Assembly (NCBI GenBank): GCA_965208105.1
Contig: OZ242318.1
Span: 640,001-704,000 of the forward strand
Length of the DNA: 64,000 nucleotides
Reading direction: 5' to 3'
Source of the DNA: Candidatus Latescibacterota bacterium
GTDB lineage: Bacteria; Latescibacterota; UBA2968; UBA8231
The translations under genes were made by a program, and so were the position numbers. Every line of letters starts with the position of its first letter. Positions within the stretch are counted from its first letter, which is position 1. Shown piece after piece: positions 57,299-64,000 of this stretch. The notes below the pieces were generated by a model that was given only the letters and a program-made list of their open reading frames with translations, was not told the origin of the DNA and made no database searches.

Positions 57299-59035
57299 TC
57301 ACCAGCCGATGGCATACGACGTGGACCGTGGGTCCGCGCCGCCGGTCCTGGTGCCCGTCTCCGGATCAATGGTGATGGCGCACACGCGGCTGACCCCCGC
57401 GCTCCAATCCCCGCCGTCTTCGACGAGGTGGCCGCGGTCCCGCAAAGCCTCGCGCACCCGTGGAGCGATGCGGGATTCCACCGTTACCTCTCCGGGCAAT
57501 GATTGGTGGGGCCAGAACGAGTTCGGGAAACTGTGGCTGATGACGCGGGGGGCCTCGATCGCCTCCTGCGGCTCCATTCCGAACTCGACGATGTTGAGGA
57601 ACACCTGCAGCATCCCCTGCACCTGGGCATCGCCACCGGGGCAGCCGAAGGGCATGAACGGCTTCCCATCCTTGAGGACCAGCGCCGGATTCGGCGTCAG
57701 GCGTGGACGCTTCCACGGCTGCAGACAGGAGGGGTGCGACGGATCGAGCCAGGTCTGCGTACCTCGTCCCGAGACCGGAAAGCCCAGGCCCGGAACCACC
57801 GGACACCAGCCAACCGGATCAGATGGAGTCGCCGAGAACGCATTGCCCTGCCCGTCCACCACGCAGAGGTAGCTGGTATCGCTCTCCCAGTGAGATTTTC
57901 GCCCCGGCTGTGGACGATCGGGGTCGATGACCGGGAAGGGACCGTTCTTGCGGCGCGGTTCAGGATGGAACCGCCACGGGTCGCCGGGGGACGGCATGTC
58001 ACCGGCGGCGCGGCCGGGGTCGATGCAATTCCGCCTTTCAGCGGCAAAGCGCTCATCCAGCAGACCCGCCATCGGGACCTGCACGAAATCGGGGTCGCCG
58101 AAATACGCCTCCCGGTCGGCAAACGCCAGTTTGAGCCCCTCGATGGTGGTGTGGAGGTAATCCGCGGATTCGTGCCCCATCCCCTTCAAGTCAACCCCTT
58201 CGAGAATCTTCAGCGCCATGTTCAAGGCCGGCCCCTGGCACCAGGGTCCACAGGTATACACATCATGGCCCTTGTAGGCGATGCGCACCGGCGGTTCGAC
58301 CCGAACCGAGAAGGCGGCGAGGTCCTCGTAGGTCAGCAGGCCCCCTTCCCGGGCATGAAAATCGGCGATCTCCCGGGCAATTTCGCCCTTGTAGATCAGG
58401 TCGCGCGCGGCCCTGATCCCCGTTTCCCGATCACCCCCTGTTCGCCGTTCGGCGGCGATCATGCGCCGGAAGGTGTTAGCCAGGTCCTTCTGGAAGAATA
58501 TTTCCCCGGTCCGCGGAATACGTCCACCGGGGTTGAAGACCACCGCCGTCGACGGCTCACTTACCTGCTCTCCGGCCGCGAAGGCGTGGAACTGACCGTC
58601 GACGGGGTGGCCGTTTTCGGCGAGGTCCAGGGCCGGCTGCACCACCTGCTCGAAGGTCATGGTGCCGAAGCGCGCCAACGCCGTAAGCCAGGCATCGGGA
58701 GCCGCCGGGGTGACGGTCCGCAAAATTCCCGGGGGCAGGTCGCCGCCGTGATGTTCCTGGAAGTAGCCGATGCTCGCCCCTTTTGGCCAGCGTCCGAGTC
58801 CGCTGATGGTTTCGACAGCTGCGCCCCGGGCCGGGCAATAGATAATCGGCGCAACACCGCCGAAGTGGGTGAGCCCGGGTTGAAGCACGTTGATACAGAT
58901 GCCGACGGCGACGCCTGCATCGGCGGCGTTGCCTCCCCATTCGAGGATGCGGACCCCGCCCATCGTTGCGAGGTAATGGACCGATGAGACCACGTAGCGC
59001 TTCCCTCGGACCGACGGACGATGACTTCCTGGCAT
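57299..59035 (-). CDS. ggt: Gamma-glutamyltransferase family protein
   Basis: GGNAADA, DTSYLCVVD (N-terminal-nucleophile Thr), KRPRLTPNP, GCPGGDAQ, GGADPR. ATG at 59035 after GGAGG. Confidence 0.92.
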   Translation of the reverse strand: MPGSHRPSVRGKRYVVSSVHYLATMGGVRILEWGGNAADAGVAVGICINVLQPGLTHFGGVAPIIYCPARGAAVETISGLGRWPKGASIGYFQEHHGGDLPPGILRTVTPAAPDAWLTALARFGTMTFEQVVQPALDLAENGHPVDGQFHAFAAGEQVSEPSTAVVFNPGGRIPRTGEIFFQKDLANTFRRMIAAERRTGGDRETGIRAARDLIYKGEIAREIADFHAREGGLLTYEDLAAFSVRVEPPVRIAYKGHDVYTCGPWCQGPALNMALKILEGVDLKGMGHESADYLHTTIEGLKLAFADREAYFGDPDFVQVPMAGLLDERFAAERRNCIDPGRAAGDMPSPGDPWRFHPEPRRKNGPFPVIDPDRPQPGRKSHWESDTSYLCVVDGQGNAFSATPSDPVGWCPVVPGLGFPVSGRGTQTWLDPSHPSCLQPWKRPRLTPNPALVLKDGKPFMPFGCPGGDAQVQGMLQVFLNIVEFGMEPQEAIEAPRVISHSFPNSFWPHQSLPGEVTVESRIAPRVREALRDRGHLVEDGGDWSAGVSRVCAITIDPETGTRTGGADPRSTSYAIGW

Positions 59036-59289
59036 GCAGATTCCTCCTTCCCCCTGCCCCGGGGTGGTCCTCGACGCTGCCATGCACTGTGCCGGACAGG
59101 ATGAATAATCGGCCTTCTCCCGGTCCCCGACAAGGGCGCCGGATGGGGCAATGGCCAAGGTCAAGGCAACCCGCGTCCGCCGCGGCCCCGCATCCGGCCG
59201 CAGGTGGCGGAGATGCCTGATTGCCGCCGGATCAGTGATCGGATCCGCAATTGCGAGTCCCACCATGGATTCCGCCGGCCATCCTTCCC

Positions 59290-59318
59290 TTGCCATGGCC
59301 CGCCTTTTCCCGTACCAT
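59290..59318 (+). promoter_or_regulatory. Sigma70-type promoter for the ankyrin gene leader
   Basis: TTGCCA(59290-59295)-N17-TACCAT(59313-59318). Confidence 0.7.
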
Positions 59319-59323
59319 CCCGA

Positions 59324-59453
59324 AGAGCGCTCCAGGGCGCCTCCGGTCCGCGGGCAGGGCTGAGCCCACCTGACACATCTTCTTCGATCCACATTCGACG
59401 GACTCTTCCTGCCCGTCACGCGGACACCGGGTGTTTCCAGCGAGGAGGTCGTC
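59324..59453 (+). ncRNA. Structured 5' leader (candidate cis-regulatory RNA)
   Basis: Nested complementary arms CCGG/CCGG, TCCGCG/CGCGGA, GGCAGG/CCTGCC, GAGcCC/GGaCTC. The hairpin base abuts AGGAGG at 59443-59448. Confidence 0.65.
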
Positions 59454-61397
59454 ATGGCTGCTTCCCAACCTTCCCAGGGTGCGCGTTCTCTTCCGCAACG
59501 ACCCGATCTGCGCCAACTCAAGAAACAGGCCAAGGAACTGCTCAAAGGGTATCGCTCCCGCGACCCGTCTGCGCTAACCGAGGTCGCGACACACGAGCGG
59601 GAGCCGGACCCTGGAAGCTTCTTCCTGAATGATGCACAGCGGGTGTTGGCCCGGTCCTACGGATTTACAAGCTGGGCAAAGCTGGTGGAGCACGTAAACG
59701 GCCGCAGTGCCGGTCGCTTCTGGGCGGCCGCCCAGGAAGGGGATCTGCCAACCCTGAAGTCGATTGCCGCCAAGCGGCCTGAGCTGGTCATGATGTCCCG
59801 GCCAGGTCTGGGCAACCCCCTGCACTGTGCCGTGCTCAACCGGGATGCCGCCTGCGCCGGCTTTCTGCTCGAAAACGGGGCCGACCCTCACAAGGGTGTC
59901 TATCCGCACCGCGAGTCCACTTCCCCGCTCGTTCTGGCCCGGGAAAGGGGATACGACGACATCGCGGAGATCATCGAGCGCGAGCTCCAGCGCAGGCGGG
60001 CGAGGGCCGGCGCCACCCGTTCGGATACAGCCGAGGTCGCCGAAGCGATCCGCAAGGGCGATGAGAACAGCGTCGATCGGTTGCTCTCGGCGGACTCCGC
60101 GCGGGCTGCGGCGGTGGACGAAAGGGGCCGCAGCCCGCTGCATCACGCTGCCTCTGCCCGCAACCGGGGCCTGACCCTTCGAATCCTGCAGTCGGACCGC
60201 GAACTCTCCAGACCTGACGTCGATGGATTGGCGCCGATCGACTGCGCCGTTCTGGCGGTGGACTGGACGCGGAGAGAGGAGACCACGAGGGAAGCCATTT
60301 CCGTTGCCCGGCTCCTGCTGGAGCACGGGGCGGGTCCCACTGCGCGAAGCGCGGCAGCCAGCGGAGACCTGGCCTACCTGCAGTCGCTGAGCCGCGCCAG
60401 AATGGAATCCTGCGCCGGGGAAGGCGGAGGGTTGCTGACCCTGGCCGTGGAATTCGGCCAGCGCGAGGTCCTGGACCATTTGCTGGAGAAGGGACTCGAT
60501 CCGGACGAACGGGTGCTACTCGATGAGGCGGAGGAAGAACTCTACACCTGGGGAATGCCGCTCTGGCACGCCGCCTTCCTTTCGGAGTACGAGATGGCGG
60601 AATCGTTGATTGCCGCCGGAGCCGACGTCAACCCCTCGGTGTATGCCAGCGGTTCACCGATGGACCAGGCTTACGGCGCCGATGACGAGAAGATGAAGGC
60701 ACTGTTGCGGCGCCACGGTGCGCTTACCAGTGTCGAAACCATGGGGTTGTATCGCGACACCGAGACGGCACGGGAGGCCCTGGAAGGCAGGGCGGCCGCC
60801 TACTCCCATTCCGACCCGGCTGTGGACGGCACCCCCGCAGAGAAGATGCTGTGGGCAGCGGCATGCGGGGGCGATCCCGAGATCGTCGCCATGTGTCTCG
60901 CCCGCATCGACCGCGCACCCGACGATTCATGGTGGGCGGTGATCCTGCTGCAGCCGATGCGGACCTGGAACCATGGTTACCACCGGCGTCACTCGGGGTT
61001 CGACCGCTCTACCTACACCCGGTGCCTCGGCCTGCTGCTGCAGCATGGCATCGATCCGAACGTGACCGACCAGCGGGGGTTCACCGCGCTGCACCATCTC
61101 GCCCACGGTTCCTGCTCGCGCGCTTGGTACATGACCGGGGACGAGGAGCTGGAGTTCGGCCGCCTGTTGCTGGATGCCGGCGCCAGTACGACCCTGCGCG
61201 ACCCTCTGCTGAAGTCGACCCCGCTGGGCTGGGCTTGCCGCAACAACCGGGTGGCGCTGGTGGAGTTGTTGCTCGAGCGCGCCGCCGCCGTCAACGAGCC
61301 GGAGGCCGAACCATGGGCGACGCCGCTGGCGTGGGCGGCCAAAATGGGTCACGAGGAGCTGGCGAAGTTCCTGCGCGAGCGCGGAGCGGTGGAATGA
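59454..61397 (+). CDS. Ankyrin-repeat protein with N-terminal small helical domain
   Basis: N-terminus SLPQRPDLRQLKKQAKELL...DAQRVLARSYGFTSWAKLVEHV, then ankyrin motifs (GNPLHCA, GRSPLHHA, GFTALHHL, STPLGWA, ATPLAWA). Confidence 0.9.
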   Translation: MAASQPSQGARSLPQRPDLRQLKKQAKELLKGYRSRDPSALTEVATHEREPDPGSFFLNDAQRVLARSYGFTSWAKLVEHVNGRSAGRFWAAAQEGDLPTLKSIAAKRPELVMMSRPGLGNPLHCAVLNRDAACAGFLLENGADPHKGVYPHRESTSPLVLARERGYDDIAEIIERELQRRRARAGATRSDTAEVAEAIRKGDENSVDRLLSADSARAAAVDERGRSPLHHAASARNRGLTLRILQSDRELSRPDVDGLAPIDCAVLAVDWTRREETTREAISVARLLLEHGAGPTARSAAASGDLAYLQSLSRARMESCAGEGGGLLTLAVEFGQREVLDHLLEKGLDPDERVLLDEAEEELYTWGMPLWHAAFLSEYEMAESLIAAGADVNPSVYASGSPMDQAYGADDEKMKALLRRHGALTSVETMGLYRDTETAREALEGRAAAYSHSDPAVDGTPAEKMLWAAACGGDPEIVAMCLARIDRAPDDSWWAVILLQPMRTWNHGYHRRHSGFDRSTYTRCLGLLLQHGIDPNVTDQRGFTALHHLAHGSCSRAWYMTGDEELEFGRLLLDAGASTTLRDPLLKSTPLGWACRNNRVALVELLLERAAAVNEPEAEPWATPLAWAAKMGHEELAKFLRERGAVE

Positions 61398-61536
61398 GTT
61401 GAGGCAGGGCTACGCGGACCCGGCGGAACCGCCCCGTCGGGCAGGGCGCCGCGAAACCTGGTCACGAACTGGGGTTTGCGGTCCGGAGAGTGCTTCGGCC
61501 TGAGGAACCAGATGTTCCCTCCGACCGCGTCGTGGT

Positions 61537-62607
61537 TCAGGCCGCGCCTCCCTTGACGGCGATTTTGATCGCGTCTCTGCCGTCCAGGTGATAGCTGCCA
61601 TGGAGCGCGTCGAAGCCCTTGGAAACCTCCTCCAGCGCAAGAATGTGGCTTACGAACCCTTCGAAGAGGGAGGCGTGCTTTTCCAGCATGGGGATGGCGC
61701 GGAGAAAGTGCTTCCCCTCGAATCCCCATCCGGCCTCCAACCTCAGGTTCTTCCTCATCAACATCCGGTTGGGATTGCATTCGAAGGAGCCGACGTCCAC
61801 GAAATGCCCATACACGACATAGGTTCCGCCGTACTTTATGTAGTCCAGGCCTTCGGGGATGGCGGGGAGAAAGCCGGTGCATTCGTAGACCACGTCCGCA
61901 CCTTTGCCCTGTGAGGTATTCTCCCGGACTATCCTCTTGCGCTCTTCCGGGTCCGCCACCTCGGCGATGTCGATTACGAGGTCCGCCCCCAACCTCCTCG
62001 CCATCTCGAGCCGGCCCGGTGGTCCGCCTACGACGATGAGCCGTCCGGCACCGGAAACTCTGGCCCAGTTGAGCGCAAGGAGACCTATCGGACCCGTTCC
62101 CTGGATCACAACCGTGTCCCCGAAGTCGATCCCGCCTCGGGACACGCAATGTGCAGCACACGAAGCAGGTTCGGCCAGAACGGCGATTTCGGGCGGCAGA
62201 TCGGTTTTGATGAACATGATCTCGTCCGGGTCCGAGAGATAGATGAATTCGCTGAACCCGCCGCGAAGATAGGGCTCTTCTTCCGACGGAGAAAACCCGA
62301 TTCCACCTTCGGGAGAGACAGCGATTCTGTCTCCCACTTCCACCGGATTGCCGAGAGAGTCTTTATCCACCCCCTCTCCCAGGGCATCGATCACACCGAC
62401 ATTCTCGTGCCCGAGGATGCTATCGTGGCCGATGCGCTGGAATTCCCAGTTGTGGAGGTCGGTTCCGCAAATGCCGCCCAACTCCTGGCGCACGAGGACG
62501 GTTCCGGGAGAGGGATCGGCTACGGGATACTCCCGGATTTCAAACTTCCTGCCACTCATCACGGCGGCACGTGCTGTTCTGGTTTCCATCGTCATTTCCG
62601 GTATCAT
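61537..62607 (-). CDS. Zinc-binding alcohol dehydrogenase family protein
   Basis: GICGTDLH, ILGHE, GTGPIG, GADVVYECTG. Confidence 0.92.
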   Translation of the reverse strand: MIPEMTMETRTARAAVMSGRKFEIREYPVADPSPGTVLVRQELGGICGTDLHNWEFQRIGHDSILGHENVGVIDALGEGVDKDSLGNPVEVGDRIAVSPEGGIGFSPSEEEPYLRGGFSEFIYLSDPDEIMFIKTDLPPEIAVLAEPASCAAHCVSRGGIDFGDTVVIQGTGPIGLLALNWARVSGAGRLIVVGGPPGRLEMARRLGADLVIDIAEVADPEERKRIVRENTSQGKGADVVYECTGFLPAIPEGLDYIKYGGTYVVYGHFVDVGSFECNPNRMLMRKNLRLEAGWGFEGKHFLRAIPMLEKHASLFEGFVSHILALEEVSKGFDALHGSYHLDGRDAIKIAVKGGAA

Positions 62608-62728
62608 TCCCTGTCGGCATGTGGAGAGAAATTCGCCAGCCGGTCGTAGACTCGATTTCGGCTGTGATATAAAATATAGCCTGGATTTACCGCATCAAAC
62701 ACAACATGACCAAGTGAAGAGATTGGCA

Positions 62729-64000
62729 ATGGGACCCGCACCGGCATACCTGGCAGTTTGGGCCCTGATCGTCCTGACCTGGCCGTTGGGGTGTTCTCGC
62801 GAACCCGGCGAGCTATCCCGGGAAACCGGTCCTGGAATTTCCGCATCCGCCGGAAGTGGGGCCGCCGCCGTGGAGCCCGAATCCGGCAGGAGACCGGACC
62901 CCGCGCCCGCGGAGGCGGCCGCAGCACCTGGGGAAAGGGTGCGGTTCGTCGACGTGAGCCCCTCCTCCGGCCTCGACTTCACCCTCGAGTCCGGGTCTCC
63001 GCAGCAGGACTACATCGTCGCGGCCATGGCCGGCGGCGTCGCCTTTCTCGACTATGACGACGACGGCTACCAGGACGTCTTCATGGTCAGCAGCTCGCGC
63101 ATGGAGGGCCCCCCCGCCGGGGCTTTCAACCGCCTCTACAAAAACGTCCCGGGAAACGACGGCGGGCGCGTCTTTCGCGACGTGACCGAGGGATCGGGCC
63201 TGCAGCGCACCGGATGGGGGATGGGGTGCGCCACCGGCGACTACGACAACGACGGCGACGTGGACATCTACGTCACCTACGTGGGCCCCAACGCCCTCTA
63301 CCGCAACAACGGCGACGGCACCTTCGCCAGCGTCGGCCGCAGGGCGGGGGTGGCCGATGAACGCTGGGGCGCCAGCGCCGCCTTCGCCGACCTGGACGCC
63401 GACGGATTCCTGGATCTCTACGTGGCCAACTACCTCGTCTTCGATCCCGAGTCTCCCCCCGAACCGCGGCGCGGCTGGAAAGGGCTGGTGGTATTCTACG
63501 GACCCGACGGCATGGACACGGTCCCCGACGCCCTCTACCGCAACGACGGCGACGGTACCTTCACCGACCTCAGTGCGCGCACAGGTATGAACCGCTACTA
63601 CCTGCCGGGCCTGGGGGTGGTCTTCGGCGACTACGACAACGACGGCGACCAGGACATCTACGTGGCCAACGACGGGCTGCCGAACCTCCTCTTTCGCAAC
63701 GACGGCGATTGGCGCCTGACCGAAGTGGGCACCCCCGCCGAGGTGGCTTACAGCGACGACGGGCGCGCCCAGGCCGGAATGGGCACCACCTTCGGCGACT
63801 TCGACGACGACGGCGATGCCGATATTTTCGTCACCAACTATTCCGACGACGTCAACACCCTCTACCAGAACCAGGGAGACGGCTTTTTCATCGACGCCAC
63901 CTTCGCCCTCGGTCTGGGAGGCGAGGCACAGCCCTATCTGAGCTGGAGCACGAACTTCTTCGACTACGACAACGACCGCGACCTCGACCTCTTCGTGGTC
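62729..64000 (+). CDS. CRTAC1 / ASPIC-UnbV FG-GAP repeat lipoprotein (runs off window end)
   Basis: Manual translation from ATG 62729: MGPAPAYLAVWALIVLTWPLGC..., then DYDDDGYQD, GDYDNDGDVDIY, DLDADGFLDLY, GDFDDDGDADIF repeats. Confidence 0.9.
   Translation, partial: MGPAPAYLAVWALIVLTWPLGCSREPGELSRETGPGISASAGSGAAAVEPESGRRPDPAPAEAAAAPGERVRFVDVSPSSGLDFTLESGSPQQDYIVAAMAGGVAFLDYDDDGYQDVFMVSSSRMEGPPAGAFNRLYKNVPGNDGGRVFRDVTEGSGLQRTGWGMGCATGDYDNDGDVDIYVTYVGPNALYRNNGDGTFASVGRRAGVADERWGASAAFADLDADGFLDLYVANYLVFDPESPPEPRRGWKGLVVFYGPDGMDTVPDALYRNDGDGTFTDLSARTGMNRYYLPGLGVVFGDYDNDGDQDIYVANDGLPNLLFRNDGDWRLTEVGTPAEVAYSDDGRAQAGMGTTFGDFDDDGDADIFVTNYSDDVNTLYQNQGDGFFIDATFALGLGGEAQPYLSWSTNFFDYDNDRDLDLFVV

Follow-up and report, generated by a model that had tools for sequence, protein, structure and literature searches.

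Is the leader that lies between a promoter and an ankyrin-repeat gene in a Candidatus Latescibacterota genome a regulatory RNA, and if so, what does it control and what controls it? The locus occupies positions 59290 to 61397 of the forward strand in the DNA analysed here, a stretch of 64,000 nucleotides (nt) from assembly GCA_965208105.1 (contig OZ242318.1, positions 640,001 to 704,000; hereafter the window, numbered from its first letter). A preliminary description, made from the sequence alone, had drawn the leader as one long interrupted hairpin and suggested that the N-terminal domain of the downstream protein might bind it, or that it might be an orphan riboswitch. Comparison with related leaders leads us to a different fold, and indicates that the segment 59322-59453 is probably a member of a new and widespread class of structured 5' leader RNAs controlling translation of the next gene.

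Results

Covariation in the 5' domain

The first hint of the fold came from copies of the leader found with BLASTN, where compensatory changes were seen by eye in two small hairpins absent from the earlier drawing. Fourteen copies were aligned to give a covariance model, R1, that includes hairpin P0, a CCG/CGG extension, helix P1 and hairpin P2. The pair counts given below come from alignment A4, in which 100 leaders were aligned to R1 (80 further stretches having been added), and are based on 99 distinct rows; A4 left out 16 further loci from genomes with many copies as well as nine near-duplicates (L069, L070, L073, L074, L078, L080, L082, L083 and L085). Platform and promoter tests used 167 unique leaders from A4 and A6, each with 40 nt of downstream sequence.

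The proposed leader of about 130 nt is real. R1 matches the window at 59322-59437 (108.1 bits, E 5.8e-17), and the expression platform continues to 59453, the base 5' of the ATG. At the 5' end, P0 (59327-59340) pairs GCGC (59327-59330) with GCGC (59337-59340) around the loop UCCAGG (59331-59336); across the family 88% of its cells are paired, with pair types UA 55 / GC 37 and CG 71 / UA 18. The CAGG of this loop (59333-59336) forms a pseudoknot with CCUG (59369-59372), part of an ACCUx segment 3' of P2. This contact stands outside R1 and still has 92.8% of its cells paired (AU 29 / CG 25 / GC 15; AU 67 / GC 17). P1 joins GUCCGCG (59346-59352) to CGCGGAC (59419-59425), and the family helix GUCCGC/GCGGAC, contained in R1, is paired in 99.5% of cells with two-sided changes in five of six pairs. 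P2, likewise in R1, is a hairpin of GGGC (59357-59360), loop UGA and GCCC (59364-59367), equally paired in 99.5% of cells (CG 66 / UA 21 / AU 8; GC 79 / AU 10 / CG 7). The junction bases GUCCGCGG.AAGG and CCACC are near-invariant and conserved across phyla, and a variable region follows (59373-59396), differing in length and sequence across A4 and A6 and holding a lineage-specific short hairpin in some members.

Three controls bear on these counts. When the 99 distinct leaders were shuffled, none of 500 shuffles reached the observed value on all five measures. Sliding the 3' partners left 38-47% of cells paired, compared with 91-95% for the structure. Finally, the top seven hits of a mutual-information scan that was blind to structure were pairs of P2, P0, the pseudoknot and P4, the last a helix of the 3' domain described below. 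The leader thus carries, in a 5' untranslated region (UTR), the covarying conserved structure that is looked for in a riboswitch.

One further signal was seen in A4 between columns 57 and 169 (approximately 59354 and 59419 in the window), where the variable base of a GG-N-AA motif covaries with the base 5' of the 3' strand of P1. The pair types were AT 22 and GC 13, and also GA 10 and CA 10; the signal may reflect an extra pair or a tertiary contact.

The covarying structure upstream of homologous genes, for which the preliminary description had proposed a search with a covariance model, exists, though it differs from the drawn hairpin. Folded alone, the leader (59324-59456) has a minimum free energy of -46.5 kcal/mol, the mean of dinucleotide shuffles being -48.3 (z +0.43), and 131 of 200 shuffles equal or exceed it in stability; since it does no better than its shuffles, single-sequence folding is uninformative for this GC-rich leader. 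The single long hairpin is accordingly not borne out, and five of its six helices are not kept. The survivor is UCCGCG/CGCGGA, now P1, which is also the only one to covary. CCGG/CCGG is paired in 65% of cells and varies little, on an alignment fitted to that same pairing, and its native duplexes gain nothing over permuted ones (-5.54 versus -5.45 kcal/mol; native better in 92 of 167). By eye, substitutions in three orthologues break GGCAGG/CCUGCC, where C-G becomes A-A or C-A, and GAGcCC/GGaCUC, where a G changes to A opposite C; GAGCCC belongs instead to a local hairpin, GGGC-UGA-GCCC, of which it makes up the 3' half. Both copies of UUCGA, assigned earlier to an apical loop, fall in the variable region, which contains the first and part of the second. 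Orthologue substitutions, family pairing counts and the native-versus-permuted test together led us to reject every drawn helix except P1.

A hairpin predicted to mask the Shine-Dalgarno sequence

The 3' domain contains the Shine-Dalgarno (SD) sequence. Read directly, AGGAGG lies at 59443-59448, where it had been placed before, and the start ATG at 59454. The SD strand of helix P5 (GAGGAGGUCGUC, 59442-59453) includes AGGAGG and ends at the base 5' of the ATG, and 11 of the 12 positions of the anti-SD strand (GACGGACUCUUC, 59397-59408) pair with it. Inside P5 stands hairpin P4 (59411-59432; GCCCG 59411-59415 with CGGGU 59428-59432), with the 3' strand of P1 in its loop. In the 167 leaders the SD region reads GAAAGGAG, GAGAGAGGG or similar, complementary to a conserved CUUCUUUC tract 5' of P4, and P5 is a helix of 10-13 base pairs (bp) stacked outside P4 that holds the SD and the base adjoining the start codon. 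In most listed loci, an SD-preceded open reading frame (ORF) begins 14-18 nt past the end of the model.

Native P5 duplexes average -17.8 kcal/mol and permuted ones -14.1, a gain of 3.7, with the native pairing better in 156 of 167 leaders; for P4 the values are -9.8 and -8.35 kcal/mol, native being better in 141 of 167. Both helices were also examined on A7, an alignment of 3' halves made with MAFFT only and therefore blind to structure, comprising 150 of the 167 leaders chosen at random with the window copy first. P5 showed two-sided changes in 12 of 13 pairs, and U-G wobbles in 84 and 54 cells at two positions. P4 (GCCYG/CRGGC), which is outside R1, was paired in 94% of cells on A4 (CG 38 / UA 33 / UG 18) and in 96% on A7, where its central pair was CG 64 / UA 56 / UG 18. 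Because the U-G pairs of P5 would be mismatches on the other strand, the signal belongs to an RNA read from the forward strand. Platform and putative sensor are moreover coupled, since the hairpin that pairs the SD in P5 also presents the 3' strand of P1 in its loop. As candidates for an alternative, open state we considered the pairings J1/2:tract and S1:S3, which are complementary (approximately -6 and -5.5 kcal/mol) and were rejected when they displayed no gain of native over permuted sequences; two control pairings gave no such gain either in the 167 leaders.

It could be argued that the region is conserved as DNA, being an operator or promoter, or that it contains a chance GC-rich hairpin. 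The shuffle-level stability of the leader folded alone would fit this, as would the conserved promoter described below. However, six separate helices show compensatory changes, G-U pairs specific to one strand are frequent, shuffling and sliding provide strong controls, and the orientation of the element and its distance to the start codon are fixed. This explanation is already contradicted by the covariation counts, and we give it practically no weight.

The wobble-rich P5 invites another explanation, in which a U-rich tract masks the SD and melts with heat, so that the leader is an RNA thermometer, or in which the fold is passive and merely stabilizes the mRNA. The many conserved U-G pairs between the SD and the CU tract speak for it, and Clp and Lon N-domains, which act in protein quality control, are among the fusion partners of the N-terminal module encoded downstream. 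On the other hand, a masking hairpin alone would suffice for such a device, whereas P0, P1, P2, the two pseudoknot contacts and the junction bases are conserved as well, and the mean P5 energy is high for a helix that melts at growth temperatures. We consider a thermometer or a passive structure quite improbable.

A side observation concerns the tract itself. Positions 59397-59411 (consensus ACCTTCTTTC) repeat the 3' tail of the 16S rRNA of this genome (gene at G000:C1, approximately 2334573-2334660) with one C-to-T change, and the SD consensus GAAAGGAGGT is complementary to that tail along its whole length. As judged from these sequences, the likeness is compatible both with a simple anti-SD and with rRNA mimicry.

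Promoter, transcript and neighbouring genes

A promoter-like site with the -35 element TTGCCA (59290-59295), a 17-nt spacer and the -10 element TACCAT (59313-59318) is predicted directly upstream of the leader. A consensus scan found this TTGCCA-N17-TACCAT site (59290-59318), as previously described, and no other sigma-70-like site in 59000-61700, where shuffled sequences lead one to expect 0.2. A match to TTGNNN-N16-18-TANNNT ends 1-7 nt 5' of the start of the model in 96 of 167 leaders and in only one of 167 control windows placed 200 nt downstream. This fixed distance suggests that the RNA of the family starts at the foot of P0, and it agrees with the start near 59324-59326 that had been predicted for the window. 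In a four-way upstream alignment of the window and three orthologous loci, the sequence is conserved from the -35 element through the ATG, unlike the DNA 5' of the promoter, which cannot be aligned in the orthologues from G008 and G021.

In a metatranscriptome run labelled as sponge metagenome (X1), one contig of 188 nt that is 95-99% alike covers 59389-59573, running from the 3' half of the leader into the beginning of the coding sequence. The entire stretch is present in three runs of a different study (X2-X4), from which the assembly may have been made. The leader was also considered as coding sequence and rejected: it has no internal ATG, and orthologues differ by a 2-nt indel.

Upstream, a long minus-strand ORF that is divergent from the leader (57299-59037) leaves an intergenic space of about 415 nt. 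Downstream, a 356-residue ORF on the minus strand (61537-62607) converges with the ankyrin gene, and a plus-strand ORF left open at its end (62348-64000) is rich in D-x-D-x-D-G repeats; all three were seen as translations.

Distribution of the leader

The ankyrin gene has full-length orthologues, 77-81% identical in protein, in three of 41 related genomes searched (G001, G008 and G021), and their leaders are 82-90% identical in BLASTN. The G021 orthologue was found in two pieces about 740 nt apart, G021:C3:917827-919026 (residues 1-399) and 919764-920513 (residues 396-645), and may be interrupted or split.

Among 76 genomes of the window's order, BLASTN with the leader gave matches in 15, some just 72-85% identical, and most of these copies stand immediately ahead of ORFs that open with the same module and then diverge. 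At E<=0.01, R1 detected about 170 matches in 47 of the 76 genomes, with up to 16 per genome, and at E<=0.001 it matched 58 of 151 genomes sampled from the phylum. The window's own genome has four copies, a number that does not rise when the threshold is relaxed to E<=10. Besides the one described here these are G000:C1:856142-856250(-), 2014514-2014628(-) and 2519231-2519340(+), each directly 5' of a module gene.

The preliminary description had mentioned similar leaders before such genes in other bacteria, and both R1 and a DNA pattern scan recovered them. The scan, which covered one genome per species, yielded at least 120 stretches; among the 80 listed, 72 were full-length R1 matches. The listed records include Acidobacteriota (several orders), Gemmatimonadota, Candidatus Latescibacterota, Actinomycetes (Amycolatopsis and Actinopolymorpha; Actinomycetota), Chthonomonadales (Armatimonadota), Tepidisphaeraceae and Isosphaerales (Planctomycetota), Rhodothermales, and, among the Pseudomonadota, Hyphomicrobium, Steroidobacteraceae and a metagenome-assembled genome (MAG) labelled Rubrivivax. 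Genomes outside the window's phylum have one or two copies each. Of 151 genomes sampled from the phylum of G164 (the genome of locus L175, titled Acidobacteriaceae), 13 have a match, the seed genome included.

Two loci deserve a separate remark. At L175:1744-1789, about 4.4 kilobases upstream of the leader copy, lies an Acido-Lenti-1 RNA (55.7 bits; gathering score 37). L226, whose record title reads uncultured Bifidobacterium MAG, has a leader copy of 69% G+C before a leucine-rich repeat (LRR) protein, and for such sequence the title looks doubtful.

Linkage to one protein module

The gene that follows the leader (59454-61397) encodes 647 residues, an N-terminal module of four predicted helices without a Pfam family (residues 1-92, 59454-59729) and then ankyrin repeats from about residue 90 to 645. 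To follow the module across the family, a hidden Markov model was built from 59 clear N-termini and searched against the three forward frames of the 400 nt 3' of each RNA. A module lies directly downstream at 105 of 116 loci in the window's phylum, and several of the 11 loci without a hit have a module start that is truncated or frameshifted; among the listed cross-phylum loci the count is 68 of 72, one of the misses having 33 nt of sequence left. RNA and module therefore co-occur irrespective of the C-terminal fusion, and the RNA does stand upstream of the gene for its candidate binder. L052, L065, L066 and L086 have leader copies before short module-like ORFs that stop early, and these look like decayed copies or assembly frameshifts.

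The converse is weaker. The window's genome contains nine module ORFs, and four have the RNA; by eye, the upstream sequences of the five module genes without an R1 match are short and unrelated, and no leader was seen in them. In a set of five genomes from other phyla, selected because they contain the RNA, six of eight module genes carry it. Intact RNAs also precede genes without the module, namely those of a 522-residue ankyrin protein (L244) and a 75-residue ankyrin ORF (L155), as well as FliG_C-like ORFs (L141, on G048:C59, and L128). In G048 the gene after the FliG_C-like ORF encodes two modules in tandem. Nor is the RNA confined to genomes that encode the module: G319 (7.6 Mb) and G320 (10.4 Mb), genomes of unreported completeness, have the RNA and no module match at E<=0.001. 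The G319 copy is intact and lies 14 nt before an ankyrin gene without the module, whereas the G320 copy is complete with respect to the model and has neither SD nor start codon behind it.

Properties of the module

Pfam finds ordinary ankyrin repeats in the window protein (Ank_2, E 9.4e-35, 119.5 bits, cut-off 27.3; Ank, E 4.3e-31, 105.7 bits, cut-off 21.1) and at E<=1 gives no family for residues 1-90, in agreement with the description of a non-ankyrin domain ahead of the repeats. A module profile built from 38 sequences (A5) matched 10,366 representative proteins at E<=0.001 and 5,372 at E<=1e-10. Nearly all of these matches begin at the first residue of the protein, and frequently there are two or three copies in tandem. 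The fusion to varied C-terminal domains, noted in the preliminary description, is confirmed: partners include ankyrin, LRR, Clp_N, the ClpX zinc finger, the Lon substrate-binding domain, FliG_C, FliM, the sigma-54 AAA+ domain, the BFN nuclease domain, APH kinase and PcfJ. Among 45 cross-phylum proteins linked to the RNA, 37 have ankyrin repeats, four LRR only, one is PcfJ-like and three have nothing.

AlphaFold2, with the 38 relatives, predicts helices at residues 19-34, 38-47, 58-68 and 74-87, with a mean pLDDT (predicted local distance difference test) of 75. The module is mildly basic (median isoelectric point 9.0); K or R is nearly invariant at its residues 23 and 27, and residue 67 is R in 84% of members. 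Foldseek gave no match at E<=0.001 between this model and the Protein Data Bank, and the best Z of a wide VIA search was 4.0, which is uninformative for a small helical bundle. In the ESM Atlas the module resembles only 'hypothetical protein' clusters (0.78-0.79). NCBIfam has no match on the module; the ankyrin part falls far below threshold to models of Legionella ankyrin effectors, and these matches reflect the ankyrin repeats only. PF12872 (OST-HTH/LOTUS), a family described as RNA-binding, weakly matches five of the 38 relatives, with a best E of 0.0054. A relation to the N-terminal domain of the 'glyoxalase superfamily' had also been proposed. That claim stands in part: the N-terminal half of PF20066 (Glyoxalase_8) weakly matches 15 of the 38 relatives at E<=1 (best 9e-4, near or below threshold), and protein P0002 scores 23.8 bits (cut-off 23.7, profile positions 5-71 of 143), but the window protein itself matches neither PF20066 nor PF12872.

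These data bear on the idea that the leader is autoregulatory. According to it, the module, acting in cis or from a paralogue, binds the leader and keeps the SD masked, and promoter, leader and module form a portable, self-limiting cassette to which any C-terminal domain could be joined. The linkage described above, which extends over at least seven named phyla and holds for any fusion partner, supports this idea, and so do the six of eight module genes in genomes picked for having the RNA, the conserved basic residues, the weak OST-HTH/LOTUS matches, and the CU tract that copies the 16S 3' tail in the manner of the mimicry in ribosomal-protein leaders. Against it stand the four of nine module genes with RNA in the window's genome, the intact RNAs before genes that lack the module, and G319 and G320. 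In addition, the core of the RNA is nearly invariant whereas paralogous modules share only 27-45% identity, and the module model resembles no solved RNA-binding fold. On balance we regard autoregulation as unlikely. An extended form, which we rate lower still, would have the module be an RNA-binding domain that recognizes the 16S 3'-tail copy in its own leader as well as on the ribosome, bringing its fused domains (ankyrin, LRR, Clp/Lon N-domains, kinases, AAA+ activators) to the small subunit and limiting its own synthesis by rRNA mimicry, with promoter, leader and module as a portable self-regulating cassette.

Discussion

With the P0-loop pseudoknot, the pairing between the P4 loop and P1, and the inclusion of the SD in P5, the conserved fold derived by comparison is a compact double pseudoknot that masks the ribosome binding site. 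The RNA is predicted to begin just 3' of its own promoter. Its 5' domain consists of P0, the 5' strand of P1 and P2, with the P0 loop paired to the ACCUx directly after P2, and its 3' domain is a single long hairpin whose outer helix, P5, joins the CU-rich tract to the SD region as far as the start codon, P4 being the inner helix. The GCGGAC in the P4 loop pairs back to GUCCGC as P1. In such a structure the 5' domain may act as the sensor, and the docking of P1 on the P4 loop may set P4 and P5 closed, with no translation, or open. We infer a translational switch whose default or stabilized state would be 'off', and in which P1 could either lock the masking hairpin or pry it open.

What might trigger the switch is a matter of degree. 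A small-molecule or ion ligand, which would make the leader a true riboswitch, is our first choice and comes near to an even call. The N-terminal module of the encoded proteins, and likewise another trans factor or temperature, are each markedly less probable, and it is a little less probable again that the leader does not switch at all. The conservation of the junction bases across phyla, and the occurrence of the RNA in genomes without the module, make the better guess a ligand or some factor besides the module; self-regulation retains some standing because the association with the gene is tight.

The interpretation as a switch-like leader should be viewed with some caution, since several points weigh against it. 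Its start site is predicted, its fold derives from sequence comparison and its ligand is postulated; the leader of the window, folded alone, shows no unusual stability. P5, at its mean energy, should form unaided. A conserved 'open' conformer was looked for among the leaders and was not found, and the switching step is a conjecture because the competitors S1:S3 and J1/2:tract are without covariation. P1 and P4 would have to coexist across a linker of only 2-3 nt. The sole transcript evidence is the X1 contig, which gives neither start nor end nor strand and may stem from DNA. The regulated genes, encoding ankyrin, LRR and similar repeats, offer no clue to a ligand, and a riboswitch leaves a linkage of more than 90% to one protein module unexplained.

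If the proposed class is real, a structurally distinct, doubly pseudoknotted RNA present in many phyla and in up to 16 copies per genome would join the orphan riboswitch candidates. This RNA would be tied to a very large uncharacterized module of more than 10,000 representative clusters, for which we found neither a Pfam family nor a structural relative. Its trigger, once found, would give a first functional handle on the 'eukaryote-like' repeat proteins of soil and symbiotic bacteria, and could bring to light either a new signalling ligand or an RNA-protein feedback module of a new kind. Amycolatopsis and Actinopolymorpha, which appear among the named records, offer cultured carriers in which the question can be put to a direct test.

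Comparison with known systems

The preliminary description did not recognize the leader as a named riboswitch, and no Rfam 15 model reaches its gathering score there. A search of 58800-59700 with all 4227 models at E<=10 returned only AS1890 (15.1 bits versus 39) and Spi-1 (13.2 versus 40), at chance level, and at six loci of other phyla nothing was found at the leader at E<=1, Acido-Lenti-1 and tRNA being detected elsewhere in the same sequences. Full-text literature searches and passages of survey papers contained no description of the motif, which the supplements of those surveys could name.

At the level of the protein, residues of the ankyrin part are ordinary repeats of the Ank and Ank_2 families, whereas the module and leader appear in no ankyrin family description that we found. 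PF20066 shares with the module a weak alignment over the N-terminal half of its profile, but its C-terminal glyoxalase-like part is absent and the window protein is without a match.

Among regulatory RNAs, the leader resembles thermometers of the fourU type in that uridines pair with the SD and G-U wobbles occur. It differs in being much larger, and in possessing a 5' domain and two pseudoknots that are unnecessary for melting. With the autoregulatory leaders of ribosomal proteins and other RNA-binding proteins it has in common the attachment to one protein family and a segment that copies rRNA, here the 16S 3' tail with one change. In contrast to these, the module is no known RNA-binding domain, the core of the RNA is more conserved than the protein, and copies of the RNA exist without the module.

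A further parallel is found in the SD-sequestering pseudoknot riboswitches, to which preQ1-II, SAM-II, SAM-V and guanidine-III belong. Like them, the leader lies in the 5' UTR, has a compact pseudoknotted fold with near-invariant junctions, includes the ribosome binding site in that fold and occurs in many phyla. Unlike them, it combines a loop-to-strand pseudoknot in the 5' domain with a second contact, P1, to the apical loop of a masking hairpin of 15-18 bp, and its genes encode repeat proteins with a common N-terminal module instead of a pathway. Masking of the SD by a pseudoknotted leader is a known principle, while the fold, the family and the link to a single protein module appear to be new.

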